This document shows, one piece after another, positions 3-14,708 of a stretch of 21,415 nt of DNA. The position numbers were made by a program, and so were the translations under genes. The notes below the pieces were generated by a model that was not told the origin of the DNA, searched no databases, and saw only the letters and a list, made by a program, of their open reading frames with translations. How positions within the stretch are numbered: the first letter of the stretch is position 1; each line of letters opens with the position of its first letter. Source of the stretch: Candidatus Xenobia bacterium (GTDB taxonomy: Bacteria > Vulcanimicrobiota > Xenobia > Xenobiales > QWHO01); assembly GCA_045863235.1 (NCBI GenBank), contig BTUM01000114.1, positions 1-21,415 on the forward strand, read 5' to 3'.

Positions 3-131
3 GCCTGCCACCTGCGACTGGTGCACCGGGGCTACCTGCGCATCAGCGGGCAGGCCGGAGAGCTGCGCTTCGAGCGGGCCGGCGAGGTGCTGCTCGGGGA
101 GATGCGCGTGGTGAGCGTTTCCTCTCTTTAG
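3..131 (+). CDS. 3' end of a gene truncated by the window edge; probable C-terminus of an HNH endonuclease-domain protein
   Basis: The frame from base 3 reads ACHLRLVHRGYLRISGQAGELRFERAGEVLLGEMRVVSVSSL* with GC-rich codon usage. CHxxxxH-x-G-x-L-x-I-x-G resembles the end of HNH (DUF222-associated type) proteins. Its TAG (129-131) overlaps the stop of the convergent antiporter gene. Confidence 0.5.
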   Translation, partial: ACHLRLVHRGYLRISGQAGELRFERAGEVLLGEMRVVSVSSL

Positions 132-2191
132 ATCTCCTCGTTCGTGCCCCGGGTCTCCACCAGCAGCGCCTGCAGCTCGGCCTCGGTGAGGGCCAGCTGG
201 CGCGCCATGTCGCCCAGATAGCGAGCTTCCGGCTCGGGCACCTGCTGGTCGCTCCAGGCCACTGCCAGTAAGAGCCGCATGGCGTTCATCCTTCGGCCTT
301 TGTCGAGCAGCTCCAGTTTGGGCCGGCTCCCATCGCGGTAGCGGATCACGCGCTGCTCGAACTCCTGGTGGCTCAAGCCGACCCGGTCAAGGATCTGGCG
401 CACCAGGCTGGTTTCGGCGGGCGACCAGCGCCCATCGGCCCAGGCGAGCTGGATGAGCGCGGTGACCAGCTGCTCACGCTCGTCCATCGGGAGAGTGTCC
501 TCGAAGTGCAGGGGGGCGTCCTTGCGCCCGAAGCCGTCATTCTCGAGCTCGGTGCGCAGCACGTCTTCGTCGGCCGGAAGCCCGAGCGAGAGCAGGCCCT
601 GCTTGGTGAGCTCCAAACCGCACTCGAACTCGGGCCAGAGGGCCATCCGCACGCCGTGCTCTCGCAGGTCGCGGCAGTGCTCCTGGGACACGCCGCGAGC
701 CAGCACCGTCAGGTCGGGACGAGCCTGGTGCAGGATCTCGGCCACGCGGGTGCTGGCCAGGGGGTCGGGCATGGTCAGCACTGCCAGGCGGGCCCGATAG
801 GCGCCACAAGCATCCAGGATGGTCTCCGAGCTGAGGTCTCCGAGTACCACCCGGTGGTTGAACTGGCGTGCCCGACTCAGCACCTCCGGTCGTGGGTCCA
901 CCGCGCAGAAATCGATGCCGGCGGCCGCCAGAGCGCGTGCCAGAACGAAGCCCACCCGCCCATAGCCTCCGATGAGGACGTGCGAGGACTGGGGTGGCCC
1001 GGAGGAGACCGACTCTTCCTCGGGCTGGCCCGAGAAGTGCCTCTTCCACCAGGCGTGGACCCGACCCGCCTGGTAGGAGGTGGCCGGGGTCAGCACCATG
1101 CTGAAGACCGCGGTCACCATCACCAGGTTGTAAAGGCTGGAGGATACGGCTCCGGCCTTGACGCCGACCTGTGCCAGAACGAAGGAGAACTCGCCGATCT
1201 GCCACAGGGTGAGCCCGACCGCCCACGGCACCACCCGGCGGAAGCCGAAAAGCCGCACCACACCCGCAAAGACCAGGCACTTGAGGAGGAACGTCCCTAC
1301 CAGGAGTCCCAGCAGCAGGGGCAGGTTCTCGCTGACGACTCGGGGCTCGATCAACAGGCCCACCGAGACGAAGAAGAGCATGCCGAACAGGTCCCGCAGA
1401 GGCCCCAGCTCGCTCAGGACGTGGTGGGTGTAGTCCGACTCGGCCAGCACCAGCCCGGCCAGGAAGGCCCCGAAGGCGAAGGAGAGGCCGGCCAGGTAGC
1501 TGAGAAAGCCGACGCCCAGGCCTACGGTGACGACGAGCAGGGTGAACAGCTCGCGAGGCGAGTGACTGGCGACGAATCCGAAGATGCGCGGGAGCAGCCT
1601 CCCCCCCACGAACCAGACGACCAGCACCATACCCGTGCCGGTGACCGCCAGGCGGGCCACGCTGGCCATCCCGGCGCTGAGGTTGGCGACTTCGGGCAAC
1701 AAAAGCATCATGGGGATGATGGCCAGGTCCTGCACCACCAGCATGGCCAGCATGACGCGCCCGGACAGCGCTTCACGAAAGCCCTGCGCGTCCAGCACTT
1801 TGAGAGCCACCATGGTGCTCGAAAGAGACAGGGCCGCGCCGAACCAGAGGCCCTCCAGCCAGCCGTAGCCAAACAGATGGAGCATCAGCATGCCCCCCAG
1901 CAGGCAGGCGAGCATCTGCAGGCAGGTTCCGAGCAGAGCAACCCGTTTGAGCTCCGAGAGCCTCGAGAGTGAGAACTCCAGGCCAATCCCGAACATCAGC
2001 AGGGCCACCCCCATCTCGGCCAGGTGCTCGATGTCCTTGATTTCCAGCACCTTGGGTCCGGGGGTGTGCGGGCTCACAAACAGGCCGGCCAGGATATAGC
2101 CCAGCACCAGCGGCATCCGCGCCGCCCGGGCAATGAGGCCGCCGATCAGGGCAGCCACGAAGATCAAGCACAGGTCGTCAACCAGGCCCAT
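128..2191 (-). CDS. Monovalent cation:proton antiporter-2 (CPA2; YbaL/KefB/KefC-like) with TrkA-N (RCK) domain and C-terminal TerB-like domain
   Basis: About 12-13 hydrophobic segments with CPA2 motifs (GVALLMFGIGLEFS, LSLSST, LVVQDL, GAFLAGL, FFVSVG, QIGEFSFVL). RCK Rossmann motif IGGYGRVG. C-terminal LAWADG...VAWSDQQV..PE helical repeat. Strong SD AAGGAGG at 2201-2207. Confidence 0.92.
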   Translation of the reverse strand: MGLVDDLCLIFVAALIGGLIARAARMPLVLGYILAGLFVSPHTPGPKVLEIKDIEHLAEMGVALLMFGIGLEFSLSRLSELKRVALLGTCLQMLACLLGGMLMLHLFGYGWLEGLWFGAALSLSSTMVALKVLDAQGFREALSGRVMLAMLVVQDLAIIPMMLLLPEVANLSAGMASVARLAVTGTGMVLVVWFVGGRLLPRIFGFVASHSPRELFTLLVVTVGLGVGFLSYLAGLSFAFGAFLAGLVLAESDYTHHVLSELGPLRDLFGMLFFVSVGLLIEPRVVSENLPLLLGLLVGTFLLKCLVFAGVVRLFGFRRVVPWAVGLTLWQIGEFSFVLAQVGVKAGAVSSSLYNLVMVTAVFSMVLTPATSYQAGRVHAWWKRHFSGQPEEESVSSGPPQSSHVLIGGYGRVGFVLARALAAAGIDFCAVDPRPEVLSRARQFNHRVVLGDLSSETILDACGAYRARLAVLTMPDPLASTRVAEILHQARPDLTVLARGVSQEHCRDLREHGVRMALWPEFECGLELTKQGLLSLGLPADEDVLRTELENDGFGRKDAPLHFEDTLPMDEREQLVTALIQLAWADGRWSPAETSLVRQILDRVGLSHQEFEQRVIRYRDGSRPKLELLDKGRRMNAMRLLLAVAWSDQQVPEPEARYLGDMARQLALTEAELQALLVETRGTNEEI

Positions 2192-2200
2192 GGAGTGGTT

Positions 2201-2242
2201 CCTCCTTTGAAAGACTGAACGCCAGGCTCAGTCGAGGGGAGG
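2201..2242 (-). promoter_or_regulatory. Predicted mRNA hairpin sequestering the SD of the CPA2 gene
   Basis: On the minus-strand mRNA, CCUCC (2238-2242, in the Pro-Pro codons of the uORF) is complementary to the SD GGAGG (2201-2205). It encloses an 8-bp stem GACUGAGC/GUUCAGUC (2226-2233 with 2213-2220, one G-U pair) with a 5-nt loop. Confidence 0.6.
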
Positions 2243-2521
2243 CCCGCGTCGGGCGATGGGAAAGGCCGGGTTGGCGACCCGAAAGCCCTGGCTTGACGGG
2301 TCGAACCGGTCGAGCGCGTTGGGCCGGGAGAGCGGGTAAGGACTTTCTCTGGTTGGCAACACAGCCAGAGGCCCCACCGGGAGCGGGGCCGGATGGGCAA
2401 CCTCCAGCGTTCCGTGGGGCGCGTTTTGCACTCCCAGGTGCTCCTGCGTCTGACCGGGCCGCGCCCCGAAGAGGCACAGCAAACCGACGAATATCAGCAG
2501 GATGCGGGGCATGGTCTTCAT
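2228..2521 (-). CDS. Small exported/membrane-targeted leader protein ending in RGPP; candidate ribosome-arrest peptide
   Basis: 97 aa with an N-terminal signal-like segment (MPRILLIFVGLLCLFGA), a Pro-rich linker and C-terminal ...FPIARRGPPLD*. It ends 36 nt upstream of the co-oriented CPA2 gene. Alternative ATG at 2512. Confidence 0.65.
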   Translation of the reverse strand: MKTMPRILLIFVGLLCLFGARPGQTQEHLGVQNAPHGTLEVAHPAPLPVGPLAVLPTRESPYPLSRPNALDRFDPSSQGFRVANPAFPIARRGPPLD

Positions 2522-2569: not shown

Positions 2570-4525
2570 TCAGGTTCCCGGCAAGACCAGCAGGAACCGC
2601 GAGCCCTTCCCCGGGGCAGATTCCACAAGCTCCAACCGACCCTGCAGGCTGCGGGCCATGGTGTAGGCCAGAAACAGCCCCATGCCAGTACCCTGGCCCA
2701 CCTCGCGGGTGGTGAAGAAGGGCTCGAAAATGCGCTCCTGCACCTCGGTGGACATCCCGCAGCCGTCGTCGCGCACCTCGACGGCGACCTGAGGCCCCTC
2801 GCGCTGAGCGCTCACCTCCACGCGGCGGGCACCGGCCAGCTGAGCGTTATGGATCAGGGTGACCAGGATCTGCTGCACCTCCTCGGGTCGGGCCAGCACC
2901 GCGAGATCCTCGCCGCGATACTCGATCGGACCTCCCAGGCGGCGCCGCAAGCCATCCACCAGGGGAGCCAGCGGCACGCTGGTGGGCTGACCCACCCCTT
3001 CGCGAGCGAAGCTGAGCAGCTCGCTGGTGATCTGGCGACAGCGCCCCACCGACACCCGGATGCCCTCCAGAATGGCGGTGCGCTCACCCGGGTCGGTCTC
3101 GATGGCCAGCATCTCCGCGTCGGTGCTCAAGGCCATGAGGGGGTTGTTGATCTCGTGGGCCACTCCCGCGGCCAGCTGGCCCACGGCCGACATCTTGCCG
3201 GCCAGCAAGAGCTGGCCCTGGGCCTCTTGCAGCTCGCGGTGGCGGGCAGCGTTCTCGAACGACAGGGCGGCCAGCGAGCCCAGCAAGCAGAGCGCGGTCA
3301 GCTGGTCGCGGTTGAACCCCTGGCCCGAGAGCACCAGCAGACCCACGCCGCAGGGGGCTACCAGCAGGTTGTCCTCCACCCGGGGGCCCTCCAGCGAGGG
3401 CGGCTCGAAGGGGTCGCCCCAGCGGCGGCTCACCGCTCCGTCGCGCCAGAAGAGCCCGCCGCGGTGCTCGACCAGGTTGCGGGAGGCGTTCTCCAGGCCA
3501 GCTTCCAGGGAACGGTCGTCCAGGCTGCCAGCCAGCAGGCGCACTCCTTCCAGCAGGCGCGTGAGCAGCTCGAAGCGCTGCCGAGCGCGCAGCAGGCTCT
3601 GGTGCTCGCCTGCCGAGAGCAGGGCTCGGGCGGCCAGGGGGGCCAGGCGCGAGAGGCGCTCGAGCACCTCGGGGGAGAAGTCGTCGGCTTGCGGGCGTCC
3701 CATGTAGAGCACCCCCACCTCGCCCAGGGGCAGGGCGATGGCCGGGGCTTCGTCTGGGAAGAGACGCGCTCCCTCGAGCTGCACGCGGTGCAGGGGCTGG
3801 CTGCGCTGATAGGCTTCCTGGACGATGGGCTCGGGCAGATCCAGCGAGAGGCGCTGGCGGAAGGGCGTGCGGGCGGCCACCGGCACCAGCTGGCCCCGGT
3901 CGGCCAGGAACAGGGCCACGGTCTGGCAGGGTTGCTGGGTCAGGGCGATCTCCAGGATCACCTGGGAGGGCTCGGGTGCCTCGAGCAGGCGGCTGGTCCA
4001 ATGGCCCACGTCGTCCAGGCGGCCTGCGGCGCGAGCGAGCTGCTGGCGGGCCTCCTCGATCAGCTCGGGTGGATCCTCGCGGGGAGCAGACAGGGGCCAG
4101 GCCAGCGCCACCGAGGCCAGCAAGAGCAGCACCAGGGTTGGGGGGTCGGAAGACCAGACCATGACCCAGGCCAGCAACCCCTGGCCCAGAGCCGGGAGAA
4201 CGGCGGGCCAGTGGAGCAGGGCGTAGATCAGGGCGGCCGGACCGGGAAAACCCAGGCCGCTGACCAGCACCGAGGCCGGCAGGGCCACCGAAGGACGGGT
4301 CACCCGCCTTCGCCAGATCAGGGCGGCCAGCGCGGCCAGAGCGGCCAGGCCGGGGCTCTGGCTGGCCACCCAGATCAGGCCCGCCGCCGGAGGCGTGGGC
4401 AGCAACGCCGCCAGGGGGACACAGCCCAGCGCCACCGCCAGCACCAGCGGGTCGTTCAGGAAGCGGCCCAGGGCCAGCGAGGCCAGCGTGAGCAGCAGGC
4501 AGGCGGCCAGGTAGAGCTTCTTCAC
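2570..4525 (-). CDS. Membrane-bound sensor histidine kinase with GAF-like region(s), NtrB-like kinase core
   Basis: Multi-TM N-terminus, H-box AGVAHEINNPL, N-box QQILVTLIHNA, G1 DDGCGM, F-box IFEPFFTT, G2 GTGMGL. Start placed at GTG 4525 (VKKLYLAAC); the ORF track's TTG at 4564 is the alternative. Confidence 0.88.
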   Translation of the reverse strand: MKKLYLAACLLLTLASLALGRFLNDPLVLAVALGCVPLAALLPTPPAAGLIWVASQSPGLAALAALAALIWRRRVTRPSVALPASVLVSGLGFPGPAALIYALLHWPAVLPALGQGLLAWVMVWSSDPPTLVLLLLASVALAWPLSAPREDPPELIEEARQQLARAAGRLDDVGHWTSRLLEAPEPSQVILEIALTQQPCQTVALFLADRGQLVPVAARTPFRQRLSLDLPEPIVQEAYQRSQPLHRVQLEGARLFPDEAPAIALPLGEVGVLYMGRPQADDFSPEVLERLSRLAPLAARALLSAGEHQSLLRARQRFELLTRLLEGVRLLAGSLDDRSLEAGLENASRNLVEHRGGLFWRDGAVSRRWGDPFEPPSLEGPRVEDNLLVAPCGVGLLVLSGQGFNRDQLTALCLLGSLAALSFENAARHRELQEAQGQLLLAGKMSAVGQLAAGVAHEINNPLMALSTDAEMLAIETDPGERTAILEGIRVSVGRCRQITSELLSFAREGVGQPTSVPLAPLVDGLRRRLGGPIEYRGEDLAVLARPEEVQQILVTLIHNAQLAGARRVEVSAQREGPQVAVEVRDDGCGMSTEVQERIFEPFFTTREVGQGTGMGLFLAYTMARSLQGRLELVESAPGKGSRFLLVLPGT

Positions 4526-4595
4526 GACCGCCCACCCGGCCTGAGCGCACAGCCAGACGCGCAAGGCTCCCCAGGCGGGGCACTGCGCACGGACA

Positions 4596-6929
4596 TCACG
4601 TGAGCAGCTGGTGATACAGCCGCACCGCCTCCGGCCCGGGGCTGAGGCCCAGCTCGCGCTGCAGGATGCGGCAGTAGTCGTTGTAGCGGCGCACGGCGGT
4701 ATCGCGCAACCCCTGGCCGGCCAGGCAGCGCATCTGGCCGAGCTGGGCTTCCTCGCGGCAGGGATCGAGATCCAGCATGCGCTGGTAGTGCTGGGAGGCC
4801 TCCACGAAGCGGCCCTGGCTCTCCTGGTCGCCGGCCAGAAGATGCAGCAGGCTGAAGACCTTCTCGCTGACGGTGCGTCGCAGCTCCACCACCCACTCCG
4901 ACCACAGCCCCTCCAGGAGCTCGCCGCGATAAAGGGCCACGGCTTGCTCGCCGGCCTGGCGGGCAGCCTGGCTGAGGCGTCCCGAGGCGTCCGGACGGCA
5001 CTGCTCGGCCAGGCGCTCGAGCCGGGCGTAGTCCGAGTCGATCGACAGGGCCGGGTCGAGCGAGAAGAAGCTGCGCTCGAAGACCACGATGGGGCCGGGG
5101 AGGGCGCGCAGGGCCCGGCGGGCGCGCGAGGCGGCGGTGTTGAGGCTCTTGCGGGAGATGTCCGGATTGTCAGGCCAGAGCAACGAGGCCAGTCGCTCGC
5201 CCGGCACCGGGCGGCGGTGGATCACCAGGTACAAGAACAGCTCCAGCGCCTTGCGGCTGGCCCACTCGCCGGCCGGTACGGGTTTGCCTTCCAGCAGCAC
5301 CTCGGGCGGTCCAAAGCAGAGCACCTCCACCGTGGCCTGGGCCGGGGCAGGTTTGGCCGCGGGTGCCACGGCGCCGAGCTGCGGAAAGCGCTCGCGCAGG
5401 GCCTGCAGGGCCTCGCGCTCCAGACCCTGATCCCAGGCAGCCTGCAGCACCGGCGTCAGGTCGCGCACCTCGTGAGGCGAGAAGGGCTCCACCCGGTGGG
5501 CCGCCAGCGAGAGCCATTCGCGCAGCGACTCGGACCACTCGTCGGGCGGCAGCAGCTTCAATCGCAGCGCCAGCAGGCTCTGCAGCCCGGTCAGGTCGCG
5601 CTGGGCGCGGGCCAGGGCCAGGCCCCGCTCGATCAGCTCGCGGGCCATGGGGGCGCGCTCCAGGGCCAGGTAGGTGCGGGCCGCCCGCTCGTACAGGGCG
5701 GGCGCCTGCGAGCCTTCCAGCCCGGCGCGCACCCGGCCCAGCCAGCGCAGAGCCTCCTCGGGGCGTTGGCGCGAAGCCTCCAGCGAGGCCAGCTCGACCA
5801 GCACCTCCAGGTTGTCCTCGCCGTGGACCTGGCGGCACATCTCCCCGGCTTCCAGCAGGGCCTGGCGGGCCGGCTCGTGCTGACCGCCCTGGGCCAGCAT
5901 GGCCCCCAGCCGCAGCAGCGTGCGCCAGCGGCTCTCCTGGGGTCGGGGCGCGGTGCGGGGGGGCTGGCCCTCCTGTCCGGCCAGGGCCAGGCAGACCGAC
6001 ACCACCTCGGGATCGAAGGCCGCTCCGGCCTGAGAGCGCAGCTCCTGGGCGGCTTGCTCGAAGCTCAGGGCCGGGCGGTGGGGGCGCGGGTGGCGCAGGC
6101 TGTCCCACACCTCGGCCACCGTCAGCACCCGCGACTCGATGGGGATCTCGGCCCCCTTCATGGCGCGCGGATAACCGCTGCCGTCGTAGCGCTCGCGCAG
6201 GTTGACGAGCAGGGGAGAGAGCTCGCGCAGGTCGGGCAGGTCTTCCAGCAGGGCCCGCAGGCGGGCCGGATGCTGATCCAGGAGAGCGCGCTCCTCGGGC
6301 GTGAGCACCCGGTTCTGCTGCAGCAGCTCGCGCTCGATCAGGGCCAGGCCCAGGTCGTGCAGCCAGGCGGCCAGCTCGAGCTGATCCAGCTGGTGGGCCG
6401 ACAATCCCAGCTCCACGCCCAGATCCACCGCCAGGGCGGCCACTCTGCCCGCGTGCTCGTAAAGCCAGGGGTCCTTCTCCCAGAACACGCTCACCAGCGA
6501 GGAGATGAGCCGCAGGTAGCGCCCGCGCAGCTCGTCCAGAGCCCGGCGGCCTTCCTTCTCGATCCGGCACAGCTCGGCCGAGTGGCGCACGCTGGCCAGC
6601 AGGCGATCGAGCGGCACGGGCTTGAGCAGGTAGTCGTCCACCCGGTTCTGGATGGCGCGAATGGGAGCATCCTCGCTGGCGTAGCCGGTCATGACGATGC
6701 TGCGCAGCCCCTCCTGCAGGGTGCGCAGGCTGGCCAGCGCCTCCAGCCCGTCCACCCCGGGCATGCGCACGTCGCACAGGATCAGGTCGAGCGGCCGCGA
6801 GCGCGCGATCTCGAGGGCCTCGGAGGCGTTGAGGGCCACCTCCACCTGGTAGCCCTGGGCCTTGAGGGCGCGCTCCAGGCTGCGGGCCACCTGCACGTCG
6901 TCTTCCAGGATCAAGAGGCTGACTTCCAC
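4596..6929 (-). CDS. Multidomain response regulator: REC + degenerate HD-GYP + TPR-like helices + SARP-type winged-HTH/BTAD
   Basis: Intact REC (LEDD, CDVRMPG, MTGY, LLKP). HD-GYP motifs EHAGRV, LHDLG, ERYDGSGYP, IPIESRV, FDPEVV. C-terminal CFGPPEV...RKALELFLYL...LLWP and BTAD LYRGELL...DPCREE...ELGLSPG. Confidence 0.88.
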   Translation of the reverse strand: MEVSLLILEDDVQVARSLERALKAQGYQVEVALNASEALEIARSRPLDLILCDVRMPGVDGLEALASLRTLQEGLRSIVMTGYASEDAPIRAIQNRVDDYLLKPVPLDRLLASVRHSAELCRIEKEGRRALDELRGRYLRLISSLVSVFWEKDPWLYEHAGRVAALAVDLGVELGLSAHQLDQLELAAWLHDLGLALIERELLQQNRVLTPEERALLDQHPARLRALLEDLPDLRELSPLLVNLRERYDGSGYPRAMKGAEIPIESRVLTVAEVWDSLRHPRPHRPALSFEQAAQELRSQAGAAFDPEVVSVCLALAGQEGQPPRTAPRPQESRWRTLLRLGAMLAQGGQHEPARQALLEAGEMCRQVHGEDNLEVLVELASLEASRQRPEEALRWLGRVRAGLEGSQAPALYERAARTYLALERAPMARELIERGLALARAQRDLTGLQSLLALRLKLLPPDEWSESLREWLSLAAHRVEPFSPHEVRDLTPVLQAAWDQGLEREALQALRERFPQLGAVAPAAKPAPAQATVEVLCFGPPEVLLEGKPVPAGEWASRKALELFLYLVIHRRPVPGERLASLLWPDNPDISRKSLNTAASRARRALRALPGPIVVFERSFFSLDPALSIDSDYARLERLAEQCRPDASGRLSQAARQAGEQAVALYRGELLEGLWSEWVVELRRTVSEKVFSLLHLLAGDQESQGRFVEASQHYQRMLDLDPCREEAQLGQMRCLAGQGLRDTAVRRYNDYCRILQRELGLSPGPEAVRLYHQLLT

Positions 6930-8868: not shown

Positions 8869-9888
8869 ATGGACGCCATCAGCAACTTTAACGGACTGCA
8901 GCAGTTTCAAACCATCTCCCGCCCGGTGGGAGCATTCCAGGGCTCAGCCCCGGCCGATCAGAACGGCGCCGTCTCCTTCGGGGGGATGAACCTGCAGGTC
9001 GTGCTCGCTCAGATGGTCCAGTCGCTGGACAAGCTGAACCTGGGCTGGAACAGCCTCAACGGTAGCCAGCCCGAGCGTCCGCTGCCCTTCTTCGCCCAGC
9101 TGCTCGAGGGCCAGAACCGCCAGCCGGCCGGTCCCATCGCGGTCACCCAGGCCTATCCCTCCGACAACGAGGACGGTGGCGGGGTGGATCCGAGCCCGCC
9201 CATCGCGGTCACCATGGCCTACCCTTCGGACAACGAGGACGGCGGCGTCGACCAGCCCCCGGTCACCACCGCCAAGTATCCTTCCGACGCTGAGGACGGC
9301 GGGGGCTCGATCCCTCCCCGCCCCGACGGGCCGCCGATGGTCACCATGGCCTACCCGTCCGACAACGAGGACGGCGGCATCGACCAGCCCCCGCCCATCG
9401 CGGTCACCATGGCCTACCCCTCGGACAACGAGGATGGCGGCATCGACCAGCCCCCGGTCACCACGGCCAAGTATCCCTCCGACAACGAGGACGGTGGAGG
9501 CAGCATCCCGCCTCGGCCCGACGGCCCGCCGGTGAACCGTCCCCCGGTCGGCATCCCGCCTCGGCCTGATGGACCGCCGGTCGACCGTGACCCCCGCTTG
9601 ATCGGGCCTCCTGTGGGCGGGCCGATCACCGAGAAGTATCCCTCCGACAACGACGACGGCGGACCGCGCCTCATCGGGCCCCCGGTCACCGAGAAGTACC
9701 CTTCCGACAACGAGGACGGTGGCGTGAGCCCCGGCAACCCGGGCCGCCCCGGCCGTCCCGGAGTCATCCCGGGCAACCCGGGCCGTCCGGGCGGGATCGG
9801 GGGCGTGAGCCCCGGCAATCCGGGTCGCCCCGGCATCCAGATCACGATGAAGTTCCCCTCCGACCAGGAGGACTGGCGCTCGGCCTGA
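8869..9888 (+). CDS. Multi-core microviridin/marinostatin-family (group 1 graspetide) RiPP precursor with 9 cores
   Basis: Leader motif PFFAQLL (9085-9105; cf. the microviridin PFFARFL motif). Nine cores at 9145 TQAYPSDNED, 9211 TMAYPSDNED, 9268 TAKYPSDAED, 9343 TMAYPSDNED, 9406 TMAYPSDNED, 9463 TAKYPSDNED, 9628 TEKYPSDNDD, 9688 TEKYPSDNED and 9844 TMKFPSDQED. SD GGAGGT at 8858-8863. Confidence 0.88.
   Translation: MDAISNFNGLQQFQTISRPVGAFQGSAPADQNGAVSFGGMNLQVVLAQMVQSLDKLNLGWNSLNGSQPERPLPFFAQLLEGQNRQPAGPIAVTQAYPSDNEDGGGVDPSPPIAVTMAYPSDNEDGGVDQPPVTTAKYPSDAEDGGGSIPPRPDGPPMVTMAYPSDNEDGGIDQPPPIAVTMAYPSDNEDGGIDQPPVTTAKYPSDNEDGGGSIPPRPDGPPVNRPPVGIPPRPDGPPVDRDPRLIGPPVGGPITEKYPSDNDDGGPRLIGPPVTEKYPSDNEDGGVSPGNPGRPGRPGVIPGNPGRPGGIGGVSPGNPGRPGIQITMKFPSDQEDWRSA
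9136..9873 (+). repeat. Intragenic coding repeats: core cassettes, duplicated two-core block, IPPRPDGPP and PGNPGRPG units
   Basis: The block PIAVTMAYPSDNEDGG(V/I)DQPPVTTAKYPSD(A/N)EDGGGSIPPRPDGPP occurs twice (about 9199-9336 and 9394-9531). PRLIGPPV occurs twice and PGNPGRPG three times. Differences are mostly at third codon positions. Confidence 0.9.
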
Positions 9889-9949: not shown

Positions 9950-10723
9950 TCAGGCCAGAAAGCGCCGCCCCAGCCTGCGGACCGCGAAAAACGAGAGAGC
10001 CAGACCCACCACCGCCAGGTAGAGGGCGTTCAGCCCCACCCCGTCCCACTCGCCCCGCACGATGCCGCGCATCATGTGCACCGCGTTGTAGAGGGGAGTC
10101 AGCTCGGCCACTGTGATCAGGGCGGGTGGGAAGCGCTCCTCGATGGGGAAGAAGATGCCCGAAAAGACGAAGGACGGGGTCACGAACAGCGTCCAGAAGT
10201 AGGTATAGAGGTCGATGCTGTCGATCAGCGAGGTGAAGGCGGTGCCGATGGCCGCGAAGCAGAAGCCGATCAGGGGCAGGGCCGCCAGGGCCAGCAGCAG
10301 CCGGGGGGTCAGGGGCACCCCGAAGAACAGGGTGATGGCCAGGAAGGCCGTCCCGTACAGGGTGGCCCGGGTGACGGCCCACAGGATCTCGCCCGCGGCC
10401 ACGTCCTCGAAGCTGAGCGGGGTGGCCACCATGGCGTCGTAGATCTTGGAGAAGTGCAGCTTGACGAAGATGTTGTAGGTGGTCTCGAAGATCCCCCCGT
10501 TCATGGCCGAGGCGGCCACCAGCCCGGGGGCCACGAAGGCCGTGTAACCTCCCTCGAACTGTCCGCCGGCGGCCACATAGGCCCCCAGCCCCACGCCCAT
10601 CCCCAGCAGGTAGAAGACGGGCTCGAAGAAGTTGGGCAGGATGTTGTAGACCCAGCGCTTGCTGTAGACCCAGAGATTGCGCTCCCACACCCGGGTGGCG
10701 CCTCGCAGGCTGAGGCGCCTCAC
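9950..10723 (-). CDS. ABC-2 type exporter permease (NodJ-like)
   Basis: VWERNL...FEPVFYLLGMGVGLG, YTAFVAPGL, YDAMVATPL, GEILWA, FSGIFFP, TPLY; six TM segments. GTG start at 10723 overlaps the ATPase stop. The ORF-track extension to 11119 is shadow sequence. Confidence 0.9.
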   Translation of the reverse strand: MRRLSLRGATRVWERNLWVYSKRWVYNILPNFFEPVFYLLGMGVGLGAYVAAGGQFEGGYTAFVAPGLVAASAMNGGIFETTYNIFVKLHFSKIYDAMVATPLSFEDVAAGEILWAVTRATLYGTAFLAITLFFGVPLTPRLLLALAALPLIGFCFAAIGTAFTSLIDSIDLYTYFWTLFVTPSFVFSGIFFPIEERFPPALITVAELTPLYNAVHMMRGIVRGEWDGVGLNALYLAVVGLALSFFAVRRLGRRFLA

Positions 10724-11643
10724 TGGCGCAGCGTCCGTCCGGTGAGCTTCAAGAACAGATCCTCCAGGTTGCCCGGCCGGATGTAAGCTCCATTCAAGAA
10801 CAGCCCCCGGCGCTCGAGCTCTTCCAGCGTCTGGCGACCGTCTTGCACGAACAGGCTGACCCGGTTGACGGCCGGCAAGAGCTCCACCCCCAGCTCGGCG
10901 CAGGCCTTTTCCAGCGGCTCGAGCTCTCCCTCGAGTCGGGCTTCGATGACCTCGGCGGTCACCTGCTCGGCGATCAGCTCGCGGGGCGGCCCCTGGGCGA
11001 TGACGTGGCCGTGATCGAGGATCACCAGGCGGTCGCAGAGCCGTTCGGCCTCGTCCATGTAGTGGGTGGAGAGCAACAGGGTGACGCCGCGGCCACGCAG
11101 CTCGGCCAGCTTGTCCCACAAGAGGATGCGCACCTGGGGGTCCAGGCCCGTGGTGGGCTCGTCCAGGATGAGCAGGCGCGGCTCGTTCATCAGCCCCCGG
11201 GCCAGCGTCAGGCGGCGCTTCATGCCTCCCGAGAGCTCACGGATGCGGTCCTTGGAGCGAGCCGAGAGCTCGAGAAACTCGAGCAGCTCCAGGGCCCGCT
11301 TGCGGGCCAGGGCGCGGTCCAGCCCGTAAAAGCGGGCGTAGACGAGCAGGTTGTCGAGCACCGACAGCTCTTCGTCCAGGTTGTCCATCTGGGGCACCAC
11401 CCCCAGCTGGCTCTTGATGGCCCGGTCGTCTCGCCCCGCCTCCAGGCCGAAGACGCGCAGGCTGCCCGAGGTGAGGGCGCTGACCCGGTAGATCATGCGC
11501 ATGGTGGTCGACTTGCCGGCCCCGTTGGGCCCGAGCATGCCGAAAACCTCGCCGGGGTGCACCTCGAGATCGACGTGATCGACCGCCACCAGGGCGCCGT
11601 AGCTCTTGGTCAGGCCGCGGGCTTCCACCACCAGCTCGGACAT
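10720..11643 (-). CDS. ABC-2 type exporter ATP-binding subunit (NodI/DrrA-like)
   Basis: Walker A GPNGAGKST, Q-loop GVVPQMDNLD, signature LSGGM, Walker B LLILDEPT, H-switch STHYMDEAE, C-terminal LEDLFLKLTG. Confidence 0.95.
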   Translation of the reverse strand: MSELVVEARGLTKSYGALVAVDHVDLEVHPGEVFGMLGPNGAGKSTTMRMIYRVSALTSGSLRVFGLEAGRDDRAIKSQLGVVPQMDNLDEELSVLDNLLVYARFYGLDRALARKRALELLEFLELSARSKDRIRELSGGMKRRLTLARGLMNEPRLLILDEPTTGLDPQVRILLWDKLAELRGRGVTLLLSTHYMDEAERLCDRLVILDHGHVIAQGPPRELIAEQVTAEVIEARLEGELEPLEKACAELGVELLPAVNRVSLFVQDGRQTLEELERRGLFLNGAYIRPGNLEDLFLKLTGRTLRQ

Positions 11644-11751: not shown

Positions 11752-13896
11752 TCAAGTCTTTGTTGAGGTTGGTGGCTTTCCATTCTTCTCTCGAAGCCAT
11801 GCCTCTACGTCGGAGCGGAGCACCCAGTAGCGCCGCATCCCCAGTTTCCCGGGAGTGGTGACAAAGGTCAACCTTCCCTTGCTTATGGCCCATCTGATGG
11901 GTTGCGTCGAGGCCGCTCCTATCAGCTCCTGAATTTCGATCAGTGACATGTGCTCCGGCGACGGGCGCTGCTTCTCCCATAAGGGACGCTTCCGCATTTG
12001 GAGCCAGGCCTCCAACTCGTCCGGCTTGATATAGAGGATTGGTTGGCCCCTCACCATGAGCTTGTGTGCCTGCAGATTCCCGCTCTTGTAGGCGGAAAAG
12101 AGGGTCGCGGCGGGGATGCCCCTCGATTTCGCGGCTTCACGGAGACTGAGCATACCTTCCGTATCGGGATTGCGTTCTTCGTTCCAACGTCGAACGTCCG
12201 CCACGTCAACCCAGAGCTGATCGATCACCCTGATGGCCGAAATCTCCTGGCGGTGGATGGCATTGTACAGCTGGGACAGGCCGACGCCGGCGGCTCGTGC
12301 CGCTTCTTCCGGACGGACCCAGCCCGGGGGAGCTTTGCGGATTTTCCTTTCGGGTCGGGGTTTCTTCTCGGGCCGGGAGGCCCGGAACGTCCGATAAGGC
12401 TGGCCCTCAGCTTGGCGAGTCCTCCGAGGCTTTGGGCGGGACATCGGCCGTGGCTGTGGCTGCTGGGAGAGGCCCCACCAGTTCTCCAGATCGTCGGTGC
12501 GGATCCAGTATGTCTGCTTGGGTTTGATCGCGGCCAGTTGCCCGCTATGGACAGCCGCCGTGATGGTATCGGGGGGGGCCTTGAGTCGGCTCGCAGCCTG
12601 GGCGATCGTCACCATGTCGGGTCCCGGAGCCGGTTCGCTCCCCTGCCAGGTAGATCTTGACTCCAGCCAGCTGCTCAGCTCTTCCTCATGGACCCAGATT
12701 TGGGCAGGGACGGTCTGGTTCGGCTGCCGCTCGCGTCTCAAGCAAGGGAGCTTCCTGGCCAGGCAGGCCTCGCGCAGGATAACCGAGCCCACTCCGCTCA
12801 GACGTGATGCCTCTCGGATCGTAAGGTAACCCGAGCCCGGCCGGTCGGTGCGAGAATCGAGCAGGTGTGACCAGATCCATGCGTTGAGATCGACTCGCAG
12901 AATCCACCAACGAGGTCCGAAGGGTCCATCCGTGTAGAGCGAAGCCAGCTCGCCGGAGGCCACGGCCTTCCGCAAACGTTCTGTCCATTTGAGGGACGCG
13001 GCCACGGCCGCCTCCTTCAAATTGACGTACCCGGGGCCAGGCCGGCCGATATCGCGCTCGCGCAGGCGTTCTCTGGCATCGGGGAACTCCTGATGCCAGG
13101 CCTGCAATTCTGAGAGCTCGATTCCATAAAACCAGCGCCGTCGGTAGCGTCGATGCGCCGGGAACTCACCCGCCCGCACCAGGCGATTGACCTCCTCGAC
13201 CGTATCCAGCCCCAGAAAATCTCGCGCTTGCTCGGCAGTGAGCAAGGCGCTCTTTTTGGAAGTGGGCTGGCCTCTCAACAGCTCCAAATCCTGCTCGCGT
13301 ACCGCTTGCTCGGCAGTGAGAAAGGAACTCTTGTGGGAAGTGGGCGGGCCTCCCCACTGCTCGAGATCCTGCTCGCGCACCCACCATTGGGGCCTCGGAA
13401 TCGAGGGCGTCTTGCGAGCTGGGAGTTGGCCCGTCTTGATGGCATTGAGTAAGGTCCCCCGAGAACGCAGACCAAGCCGATCCGTGGCTTCCAGCAGGCT
13501 GAGATAATCGGGGCCCGGTCGCCCCAGGTCGACCAACCCTTGCTCCTCGCGTTGCCGGAGATAGTCTTCCAGGTCCTCCGGTAGGATCCAACTTCGCCCG
13601 TTGGGCGTTCGAGCCGATTTGAGGTAGCCGTTTTTCACAGCCCTGAAGATCGAATTCACGGGCAGACCGGCGCGCTGCGCAGCCTCCTTGCAGCTCATGT
13701 GCTCGGGGCCTGGCTGAAAGCCGAGGGTCACCCCTCGCGACACCAGCCATCGATCCAGGTCGTCCTGATCGACCTCCTTGCGTCGGAGGATCTTGTTCCA
13801 TCGGGCAGTCAATTTGCCTTTGGCGATGTGTCGCTCGAGAGTTGACCTGGTCAGGCAGAGCAATGCGGCAGCTTTGTCGAAATCAATCCAGGCCAT
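11752..13896 (-). CDS. Protein of ten tandem excisionase/MerR-like (HTH_17-type) helix-turn-helix domains, 714 aa
   Basis: Ten units of about 50 aa follow the pattern (L/M)(S/T)xxEAAxxxG...xxxAxxxGxL.A...(W/Y)(I/V)xxxDLxxW, many joined by (R)PGP(D/G/E) linkers. Start set at ATG 13896 (MAWIDFDKAA); an in-frame ATG at 13983 is an alternative. Confidence 0.82.
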   Translation of the reverse strand: MAWIDFDKAAALLCLTRSTLERHIAKGKLTARWNKILRRKEVDQDDLDRWLVSRGVTLGFQPGPEHMSCKEAAQRAGLPVNSIFRAVKNGYLKSARTPNGRSWILPEDLEDYLRQREEQGLVDLGRPGPDYLSLLEATDRLGLRSRGTLLNAIKTGQLPARKTPSIPRPQWWVREQDLEQWGGPPTSHKSSFLTAEQAVREQDLELLRGQPTSKKSALLTAEQARDFLGLDTVEEVNRLVRAGEFPAHRRYRRRWFYGIELSELQAWHQEFPDARERLRERDIGRPGPGYVNLKEAAVAASLKWTERLRKAVASGELASLYTDGPFGPRWWILRVDLNAWIWSHLLDSRTDRPGSGYLTIREASRLSGVGSVILREACLARKLPCLRRERQPNQTVPAQIWVHEEELSSWLESRSTWQGSEPAPGPDMVTIAQAASRLKAPPDTITAAVHSGQLAAIKPKQTYWIRTDDLENWWGLSQQPQPRPMSRPKPRRTRQAEGQPYRTFRASRPEKKPRPERKIRKAPPGWVRPEEAARAAGVGLSQLYNAIHRQEISAIRVIDQLWVDVADVRRWNEERNPDTEGMLSLREAAKSRGIPAATLFSAYKSGNLQAHKLMVRGQPILYIKPDELEAWLQMRKRPLWEKQRPSPEHMSLIEIQELIGAASTQPIRWAISKGRLTFVTTPGKLGMRRYWVLRSDVEAWLREKNGKPPTSTKT
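13225..13380. repeat. In-frame 78-bp tandem duplication within the multi-HTH gene
   Basis: 13225-13302 vs 13303-13380 are 66/78 identical by manual alignment. They encode VREQDLEQWGGPPTSHKSSFLTAEQA / VREQDLELLRGQPTSKKSALLTAEQA. Confidence 0.92.
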
Positions 13897-13961
13897 GGGC
13901 GGGAGTTTCGAACCTGGCCCGGTTCGCTCCTTGCTCCTGTGAAACCCGCTGGGTGGGCAGG

Positions 13962-14039
13962 GCCACTCGACTGGATCACGCATGCTACACCAGGTGACCG
14001 GGTCACCCGCCGGTACCATGCGTGCTCCACCCGAGTGGC
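13962..14039. repeat. 78-bp imperfect inverted repeat (long hairpin)
   Basis: Paired blocks GCCACTCG/CGAGTGGC, TGGA/TCCA, CACGCATG/CATGCGTG, TAC/GTA and GGTGACC/GGTCACC are centred on 14000. It starts immediately after the stop codon of the 14040..14585 gene. Confidence 0.85.
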
Positions 14040-14585
14040 TTAGCTGGCCGAGCGACGAACCGAGCGGGTGGACGAGGGTACGCGCCGCACCCGGCTCTCC
14101 AGCCCGCTGCGCGAGATGGCCCGTGGGACGGGCAGAACGGCACTGGTCAAGGGTTGCGCAGGCGCGCTCTCGAGCCGGGTTGCCTGGCAGGCCTTGAGGT
14201 GCTCGAGCAACTGACGGCGCTGCTCGGCGTCGGGGTGAAGCTGCAGCTCGCCGCGATAGATTCGCCGGCACTTCTCGATGCGCAGCACGGTGGCCAGCAC
14301 GCTGACCGGGCCCGAGGCGGTGTAGAGCTTGACGGTCAGAATCTCGCCCAGGTTCAGCTCGCGGTCGCTGGAGAAGACGACGCGCTGGCTGCTCATCTCC
14401 CGGCTGCCGAGCCGGGCGCTCTGACCGCAGGAGCGCAGGGCTTCCAGGTTCTGGCACAGGGGCAGGACGCGCACCGCATCCTCGGCGACCACCACGGCCG
14501 GACGCTCGACGGCGGGAGCCGGCGGGCGCTTGAAGAGCCGCGAGGCCCACAGGGTGATGTTGGTCATTCGGAGCACGTTTTCCAC
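14040..14585 (-). CDS. Hypothetical protein with degenerate PilZ-like beta-barrel
   Basis: The pattern EMSSQRVVFSSDRELNLGEILTVKL...VLATVLRIE...YRGELQL matches PilZ strand order but lacks RxxxR and [D/N]xSxxG. SD GAGGTG precedes the GTG. Confidence 0.6.
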   Translation of the reverse strand: MENVLRMTNITLWASRLFKRPPAPAVERPAVVVAEDAVRVLPLCQNLEALRSCGQSARLGSREMSSQRVVFSSDRELNLGEILTVKLYTASGPVSVLATVLRIEKCRRIYRGELQLHPDAEQRRQLLEHLKACQATRLESAPAQPLTSAVLPVPRAISRSGLESRVRRVPSSTRSVRRSAS

Positions 14586-14708
14586 GGGTCACCTCGCTGG
14601 AGTCGTCTGGGTCAACCCCAGCTTAGCAGGTCGCCCCGGCCCCGGTCTGTTAGCTGGCTCACAAAACGCGAGGAAGGTTCGTTCGCCAGGGGCTGCGAAC
14701 GGGGGGGC

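Follow-up and report, generated by a model that had tools for sequence, protein, structure and literature searches.

The closest described systems are (i) the SecM/ApdA/ApdP/RQH-family Sec monitors, which combine a signal, a RAPP-like motif and a stem-loop over the downstream Shine-Dalgarno (SD) sequence (PMC10987492), (ii) the exported copper-sensing leaders CruR (DUF2946, PMC9426467) and CutF (PMC9973294), which carry a C-terminal Pro-rich stall motif and serve non-Sec targets, and (iii) the small secretory proteins with RAPP or RGPP motifs catalogued by Fujiwara et al. 2025 (PMC12992588), which are shorter than 300 aa and have an N-terminal signal and a C-terminal motif. CutF operates through the melting of a stem-loop at the SD (PMC9973294), and CruR acts via Rho (PMC9426467). 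According to PMC12992588, RGPP gives the most robust arrest across contexts and all seven Streptomyces leaders of this anatomy arrested (7/7), while RAPP-like motifs alone are insufficient for arrest. The authors pose two questions: whether the non-Sec genes are regulated by arrest, and where the force that releases the ribosome comes from.

Antiporter-linked arrest leaders are already catalogued. The source table of Fig. 4B in PMC12992588 lists “cation:proton antiporter” among 30 classes enriched downstream of RAPP leaders (75 RAPP vs 81 AAPP, 3.6-fold, adjusted p 1.66e-12), and the uORF list contains at least 90 occurrences of “antiporter”, at least 7 rows for “Kef family” K+ transporters and at least 15 SulP rows. 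The word “antiporter” occurs 0 times in the available main text of that paper, and the leader described here may itself be among the paper's RGPP entries. The original prediction that control of a CPA2 antiporter by such a leader may be new is thus not sustained. No ion-transporter case is named among the tested targets in the available portion of PMC12992588, and an open-licence literature search turned up no study in which an ion transporter was tested behind a leader of this type; an experimental test of regulation for such a transporter would appear to be new.

The locus described here lies in the window, i.e., the whole 21,415-nt stretch of Candidatus Xenobia bacterium DNA that was analyzed (source genome G000; G001-G004, L053, etc. 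denote related genomes and loci). It is a real, genus-restricted RGPP leader that precedes a Kef-type antiporter. Like the Sec monitors, it joins a signal and a RAPP-like motif; predicted RNA structure over the downstream SD is strong in three orthologues and weak in the allele of the window and in long folding spans. Unlike SecM, ApdA and ApdP, its target is a CPA2 antiporter instead of secA, secDF or yidC, which places it outside the Sec monitors and leaves no direct feedback on the translocon. It shares with CruR and CutF the exported leader, the C-terminal Pro-rich motif and a non-Sec target, but it does not head a metal gene, and with neither a CXXC motif nor a DUF2946 match it falls outside the CruR/DUF2946 family. 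The likeness is greatest to the small secretory proteins of PMC12992588 with a same-strand antiporter target; in contrast to the antiporter rows of the RAPP catalogue, the motif is RGPP, the phylum is different and the profile search gave no sequence homologue outside the genus.

Anatomy and coding evidence of the leader

The features of the locus are collected in Table 1. The original prediction described a 97-aa ORF with a signal-like N-terminus, an unstructured linker and an RGPP motif two codons before the stop, and all of these elements are found. The C-terminus reads PIARRGPPLD, such that RGPP is followed by Leu, Asp and the stop codon, and in 4/4 orthologues the motif lies near the end of a short (<300 aa) protein. 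A codon model trained on the source genome scores the leader at +8.2 and the two overlapping frames at -25.8 and -17.6. The G002 leader lacks the first ATG, and the leader in the window may, as in G002, start at Met4 (2512).

Table 1. Features of the leader-antiporter locus, with positions in the window unless another contig is given
Feature	Position	Strand	Evidence or remark
97-aa leader ORF	2228..2521	minus	ORF call; codon score; 3 orthologues aligned
Sec-type signal-like segment, residues 1-26	2444..2521	minus	Hydropathy; hydrophobic stretch kept in 4/4 orthologues
RGPP candidate arrest motif, residues 92-95	2237..2248	minus	4/4 orthologues; synonymous changes
CCUCC anti-SD inside Pro-Pro codons	2238..2242	minus	SD-pairing P 0.01-0.42 in window allele
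Inner 8-bp stem-loop over leader stop	2213..2233	minus	Arms 2233-2226/2220-2213
GGAGG Shine-Dalgarno of antiporter	2201..2205	minus	Present in 4/4 orthologues
CUCC local competitor, allele-specific	2192..2195	minus	Pairs with SD independently of leader, P 0.66-0.98
5′ arm of predicted 17-bp long-range helix	2263..2281	minus	Partner: antiporter codons 1-7 (2189-2171)
CPA2 Kef-type antiporter, 687 aa	128..2191	minus	Pfam Na_H_Exchanger + TrkA_N (RCK) + C-terminal TerB-like
Seven further signal + R[AG]PP leaders	G000 C32:74566, C17:90253, C15:23748, C5:49490, C13:118407, C87:13481, C56:24731		

The N-terminal localization signal is assigned on hydropathy: residues 7-20 are hydrophobic, and the hydropathy of 11-residue segments reaches 2.84, with the top segment beginning at residue 9. 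A signal cleavage site is putative. The hydrophobic stretch gives way to a linker with 20% Pro, and what would be the mature protein is rich in Pro, varies among the orthologues and is predicted to be disordered (pLDDT 0.33). The leader has a single Cys, located in the signal, and two invariant His residues (His28 and His43); no ligand-binding motif is evident in the alignment of the four orthologues.

Searches with the leader return 0 Pfam families at E 0.01, DUF2946 included, and no NCBIfam match. A profile search of 50-170-aa proteins yields three matches, all from the leader’s own orthologue set, and no sequence homologue was found outside the genus. The ESM Atlas features score 0.95 to unnamed clusters of 97-101 aa and 0.93 to SecM_small, which serves as a lead only.

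Directly upstream on the leader’s strand, 48 nt away, lie a GAF histidine kinase and a receiver-HD-TPR-BTAD regulator (2570-6929, minus). This flank with the GAF kinase and the BTAD regulator is not common to G002 or G004.

Conservation upstream of the antiporter

A first comparison covered 42 antiporter loci from 41 related genomes among more than 150 matches listed, most of which are single-domain. An ORF with signal and RGPP ends within 300 nt upstream of the antiporter in three of the 42 loci: that of the window and those of G002 and G004 (antiporter identity of 95 and 79%, respectively). It is absent from all five same-genus paralogues (~67% identity) and from 33 loci of other families, one of which has masked upstream DNA. 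A second comparison drew 160 loci from two collection scans, with 151 testable (six had no upstream DNA and three no N-terminus). The leader is present in all three testable loci at ≥78% antiporter identity (L053, plus G002 and G004 found again). Thus, the expected conservation of signal and RGPP before orthologous antiporters holds in 4/4 intact orthologues and does not extend to more distant antiporters, with the leader in 0 of the 148 testable loci below 78% identity.

Identity to the window’s leader is 83, 56 and 33% for the other three orthologues, and RGPP is the sole invariant block among the four aligned sequences. The RGPP codons of G004 carry three synonymous differences that keep the motif, the indels in the G000/G002/L053 leader alignment are multiples of three, and the DNA upstream of the leader diverges among G000, G002 and G004. 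The leader is linked to the antiporter on the same strand by a short conserved distance, with spacings of 36, 36, 29 and 143 nt from leader stop to antiporter. A quick tree groups the four antiporters that carry a leader into a single clade (SH-aLRT 93), sister to the leaderless paralogues; this placement suggests that the leader was recruited after duplication. The four leader loci are close kin and thus non-independent.

In the leaderless paralogue (L004, L005, L031, L032, L042), a GTG start overlaps the end of the upstream ORF, and the DNA of this junction is near-identical in five genomes. G001 (C109:94047-95072; L033, L045) has the leader’s first ~76 codons joined in frame to antiporter residue 432 onward; this in-frame deletion drops RGPP and all membrane helices and retains the RCK tail and the TerB-like domain. 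A matching deletion joint, from 891 to 2290 of the window, appears on one contig of the RNA-library run X4.

RNA folding around the antiporter SD

The original prediction held that CCUCC in the Pro-Pro codons pairs with the GGAGG SD around an 8-bp inner stem. The three elements are present, and the 8-bp stem is in the minimum-energy fold of all three folding spans that contain it whole, but the CCUCC:GGAGG helix is not favored in the allele of the window, with P of 0.42, 0.29, 0.01 and 0.01 in four spans of increasing size. This low probability arises because CUCC at 2195-2192 closes a local SD hairpin and because of the 17-bp long-range helix. A CCUCC:GGAGG hairpin as the dominant fold of the window is therefore rejected in favor of a minority fold. 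The 131-nt fold with the 17-bp helix has a z of -2.61; the helix is partly kept in G002 and absent from the G004 and L053 folds. The inner stem is likewise kept in G002 and absent in G004 and L053, so it was rejected as a conserved element. It was also rejected as an intrinsic terminator, with 0 terminator-like sites in 1900-2900. The same interval has 0 promoter-like sites, and the window has 0 Rfam matches to a riboswitch or known RNA.

SD sequestration, as originally proposed, finds its support in the orthologues and is weak in the window’s own allele. In folding spans that run from 15 nt ahead of RGPP to 12 nt past the antiporter start, the predicted P of pairing between SD and stall region is 0.96 (G002), 1.0 (G004) and 1.0 (L053) across different spacers. 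The anti-SD of G004 is formed by the Ser-Leu-Leu-Thr codons past RGPP, and the pairing in L053 spans a 143-nt unrelated spacer. The locus adds comparative RNA evidence to the catalogued class, in that the stall site supplies a rebuilt anti-SD each time despite spacers of three different kinds. Against a background of 200 of the 295 gene pairs with a GGAG SD, pairing exceeds 0.9 in 5, 0.5 in 27 and 0.3 in 42. In the longest spans, SD-stall pairing is 0.49-0.82 (G002), 1.0 (G004), 0.31 (L053) and 0.23 (the variant read in RNA contigs, see below). Synonymous randomization reaches the observed pairing in 32, 14, 28 and 2 of 150 trials for the four loci, so that selection on the anti-SD codons is not significant in three of the four; much of the SD pairing is a by-product of the C-rich Pro-Pro codons.

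A stalled ribosome was modeled by blocking a footprint of assumed size (2257-2230) in a register taken from the CruR toeprint. In this model, the cost of opening the SD falls from 7.5 to 2.6 (G002), 8.3 to 2.9 (G004) and 10.0 to 3.2 kcal/mol (L053). The window allele responds little or in the opposite direction (6.8 to 6.4, 7.0 to 5.1 and 7.3 to 8.6 kcal/mol without vs with the ribosome), the local CUCC hairpin keeping the SD closed in the model whether the ribosome is present or absent. Over the whole 30-nt initiation region, the modeled gain is only 1-3 kcal/mol.

The competitor that weakens the proposed switch depends on a single base. RNA contigs X1, X2 and X3, from near-identical strains, read UUCC where the window has CUCC at 2195-2192, and their base at 2195 is that of G002 (three RNA runs from three studies, one contig each, depth 3-4). 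With the variant base, the CCUCC:GGAGG helix has P of 0.95, 0.83, 0.23 and 0.23 in the four spans. Either a tighter variant or an error in the assembly could account for the base that the window has at 2195. Two of these contigs (X1, 1979-2708; X2, 1951-2405; depth 3-4) run across the junction of leader and antiporter; since X1 covers 29/30 bins and may be of DNA origin, the junction contigs prove neither transcription nor an operon.

RGPP in the genome and sister leaders

RGPP is depleted in the source genome: it occurs 7 times in 6,935 called genes vs 57.5 expected (0.12), compared to 68 vs 78.4 (0.87) for AGPP. In the same proteome, the observed/expected ratio is 0.11 for RAPP and 1.39 for AAPP, and KGPP is also low at 0.18. 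A six-frame survey finds 43 frames with a terminal R[AG]PP no more than 250 nt from a gene; eight of these frames have a hydrophobic N-terminus. In this crude survey, signal-bearing ORFs show no clear excess over frames ending in other X[AG]PP motifs (8/43 vs 33/276, p 0.22) or in A[AG]PP (8/43 vs 2/40, p 0.09), and the case for the motif consequently rests on conservation and depletion.

The targets of the eight leaders are three outer-membrane efflux operons, a CNNM/CBS protein, a SulP transporter, a universal stress protein, one unknown and the antiporter. PIARRGPP is likewise the ending of the SulP and universal stress protein leaders, which have counterparts in G002 or G003. As a DNA pattern, PIARRGPP occurs in 6/301 genomes of the phylum at 11 places, seven of which are the genus leaders before antiporter, SulP and universal stress protein genes. 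The other four were rejected as leaders: L220, L221 and L227 are mid-frame, and L222 is a startless 19-codon frame before a panB-like gene. No leader precedes the SulP homologues at six loci outside the genus (0/6). CCT is the first Pro codon in 5/8 leaders vs 22.8% (p 0.019), a post hoc comparison. In the C13 leader frame, RGPS lies just ahead of RGPP.

The downstream antiporter

The antiporter ORF begins 36 bases past the leader stop on the same strand. Its best solved relative is KefC (PDB, E 5.6e-57), and residues Q154-D155, S124/T126 and K304 align with Q155-D156, S125/T127 and K307 of KefC. These QD, Ser/Thr and Lys positions are tied to electroneutral K+/H+ exchange (PMC11150392). With the QD motif, the Ser/Thr positions, the TM11 Lys and the RCK domain all present, the protein has the traits of a Kef-type CPA2 and is a probable potassium/proton exchanger, as judged from sequence. 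It differs from Escherichia coli KefC and YbaL-type CPA2 proteins by an extra C-terminal TerB-like domain and scores below all curated equivalog cut-offs of NCBIfam (KefC, 281 vs 752; KefB, 267 vs 804; YbaL, 267 vs 700 bits). The TerB-like domain corresponds to 128-500 (minus) of the window, and stand-alone TerB-like proteins are numerous in the same order.

Proposed mechanism and alternative explanations

The anatomy, the conservation and the published tests of the class argue well for the RGPP leader as the candidate arrest peptide of the original prediction. By analogy with that class, the ribosome very probably stalls at RGPP, with a register predicted from the CruR toeprint that puts the P-site Pro at 2242-2240 and the A-site Pro at 2239-2237. 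The leader probably controls translation of the antiporter. In the proposed cycle, a ribosome translating the leader would stall at RGPP as the signal peptide engages the Sec translocon and would cover the Pro-Pro-Leu codons and the stop, which would otherwise pair with the antiporter SD, so that prolonged stalling would raise antiporter translation. The pull of export would then free the ribosome, termination would follow two codons on and the SD would refold; both the stalling and the release by pulling are carried over from established knowledge of arrest peptides. Regulation of the antiporter by stalling is what we infer from these elements, and our best guess for the sensed signal is the export rate as a proxy for membrane energization or ionic stress (K+, pH, proton motive force). 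The switch as a whole, a cis-acting arrest peptide of the RAPP/RGPP class recruited in the genus before one Kef-type paralogue, is moderately probable.

Tethering of mRNA is known for SecM and VemP, and a similar role could be imagined here. The leader might provide fixed translational coupling, in which pausing and termination over the anti-SD set the antiporter level and no condition is sensed, or it might keep the transcript of this polytopic membrane protein at the translocon. The leader stop lies two codons past RGPP, so any terminating ribosome would also cover the anti-SD; moreover, the leader has no evident sensor motif, and the targets of 5/8 leaders in the genome are genes for membrane transport or various efflux systems. 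Yet, the leaderless paralogues and homologues evidently do without a leader, and in a tested secDF leader the arrest-dead mutant stays at basal output, which indicates that arrest itself drives induction (PMC10987492). Such coupling or tethering is unlikely. Transcription attenuation of the CruR type, in which the stalled ribosome shields a C-rich rut site and its release permits Rho termination before the antiporter, would explain the weak SD switch of the window allele. C exceeds G over ~2400-2203 (C 0.40-0.45, G 0.23-0.27), similarly in three orthologues, the rho gene is present and the mechanism is shown for CruR (PMC9426467). However, Pro-rich coding is C-rich in any case, the structure predicted for this region is at odds with the unstructured nature of rut sites (PMC9426467), and the orthologues rebuild SD pairing with different sequences, which together make attenuation quite improbable. 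Lastly, the leader could simply be a small secreted protein that shares a transcript with the antiporter, with RGPP and the pairing incidental. The share of background pairs above P 0.3, the value of the window allele, fits this view (42/200), and of the 15 R[AG]PP sites in called proteins, 13 lie elsewhere than at a small protein’s end, so that the motif can evidently be tolerated. Against it, the tail alone is conserved as a block while the mature part is divergent and predicted to be disordered, and the genome holds seven more leaders of the same build, two of them ending in PIARRGPP; we regard this reading as very improbable.

If export speed sets the level of the K+/H+ antiporter through the proposed arrest switch, the leader would let the ribosome gauge the energetics of the membrane. 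The locus is a reasonable test case for the antiporter sub-class of arrest leaders, and it comes with natural controls, namely, the leaderless paralogue, the one-base fold-shifting allele and the deletion allele. A broader and rather doubtful reading is that the leader and its two PIARRGPP sisters before SulP and the universal stress protein make up a small regulon for ions and pH in this genus, with the Sec export rate as the gauge of membrane energization or external pH/K+, perhaps with sensing through the invariant His28 and His43. Were this so, an arrest peptide would govern monovalent-ion homeostasis with neither a metal ligand nor Sec feedback.

Other genes in the window

A 339-aa RiPP precursor of the microviridin/marinostatin type is encoded at 8869-9888 (plus), with PF12559 and NF033738 above cut-off. 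It has a motif, PFFAQLL, that resembles a leader motif, and roughly nine core repeats of the Tx-x-YPSD type. It adjoins an ABC transporter pair on the opposite strand (9950-11643). At 11752-14592 (minus), a 946-aa protein matches HTH_17 in 4 stretches (139 bits), with several helix-turn-helix repeats like those of excisionases.
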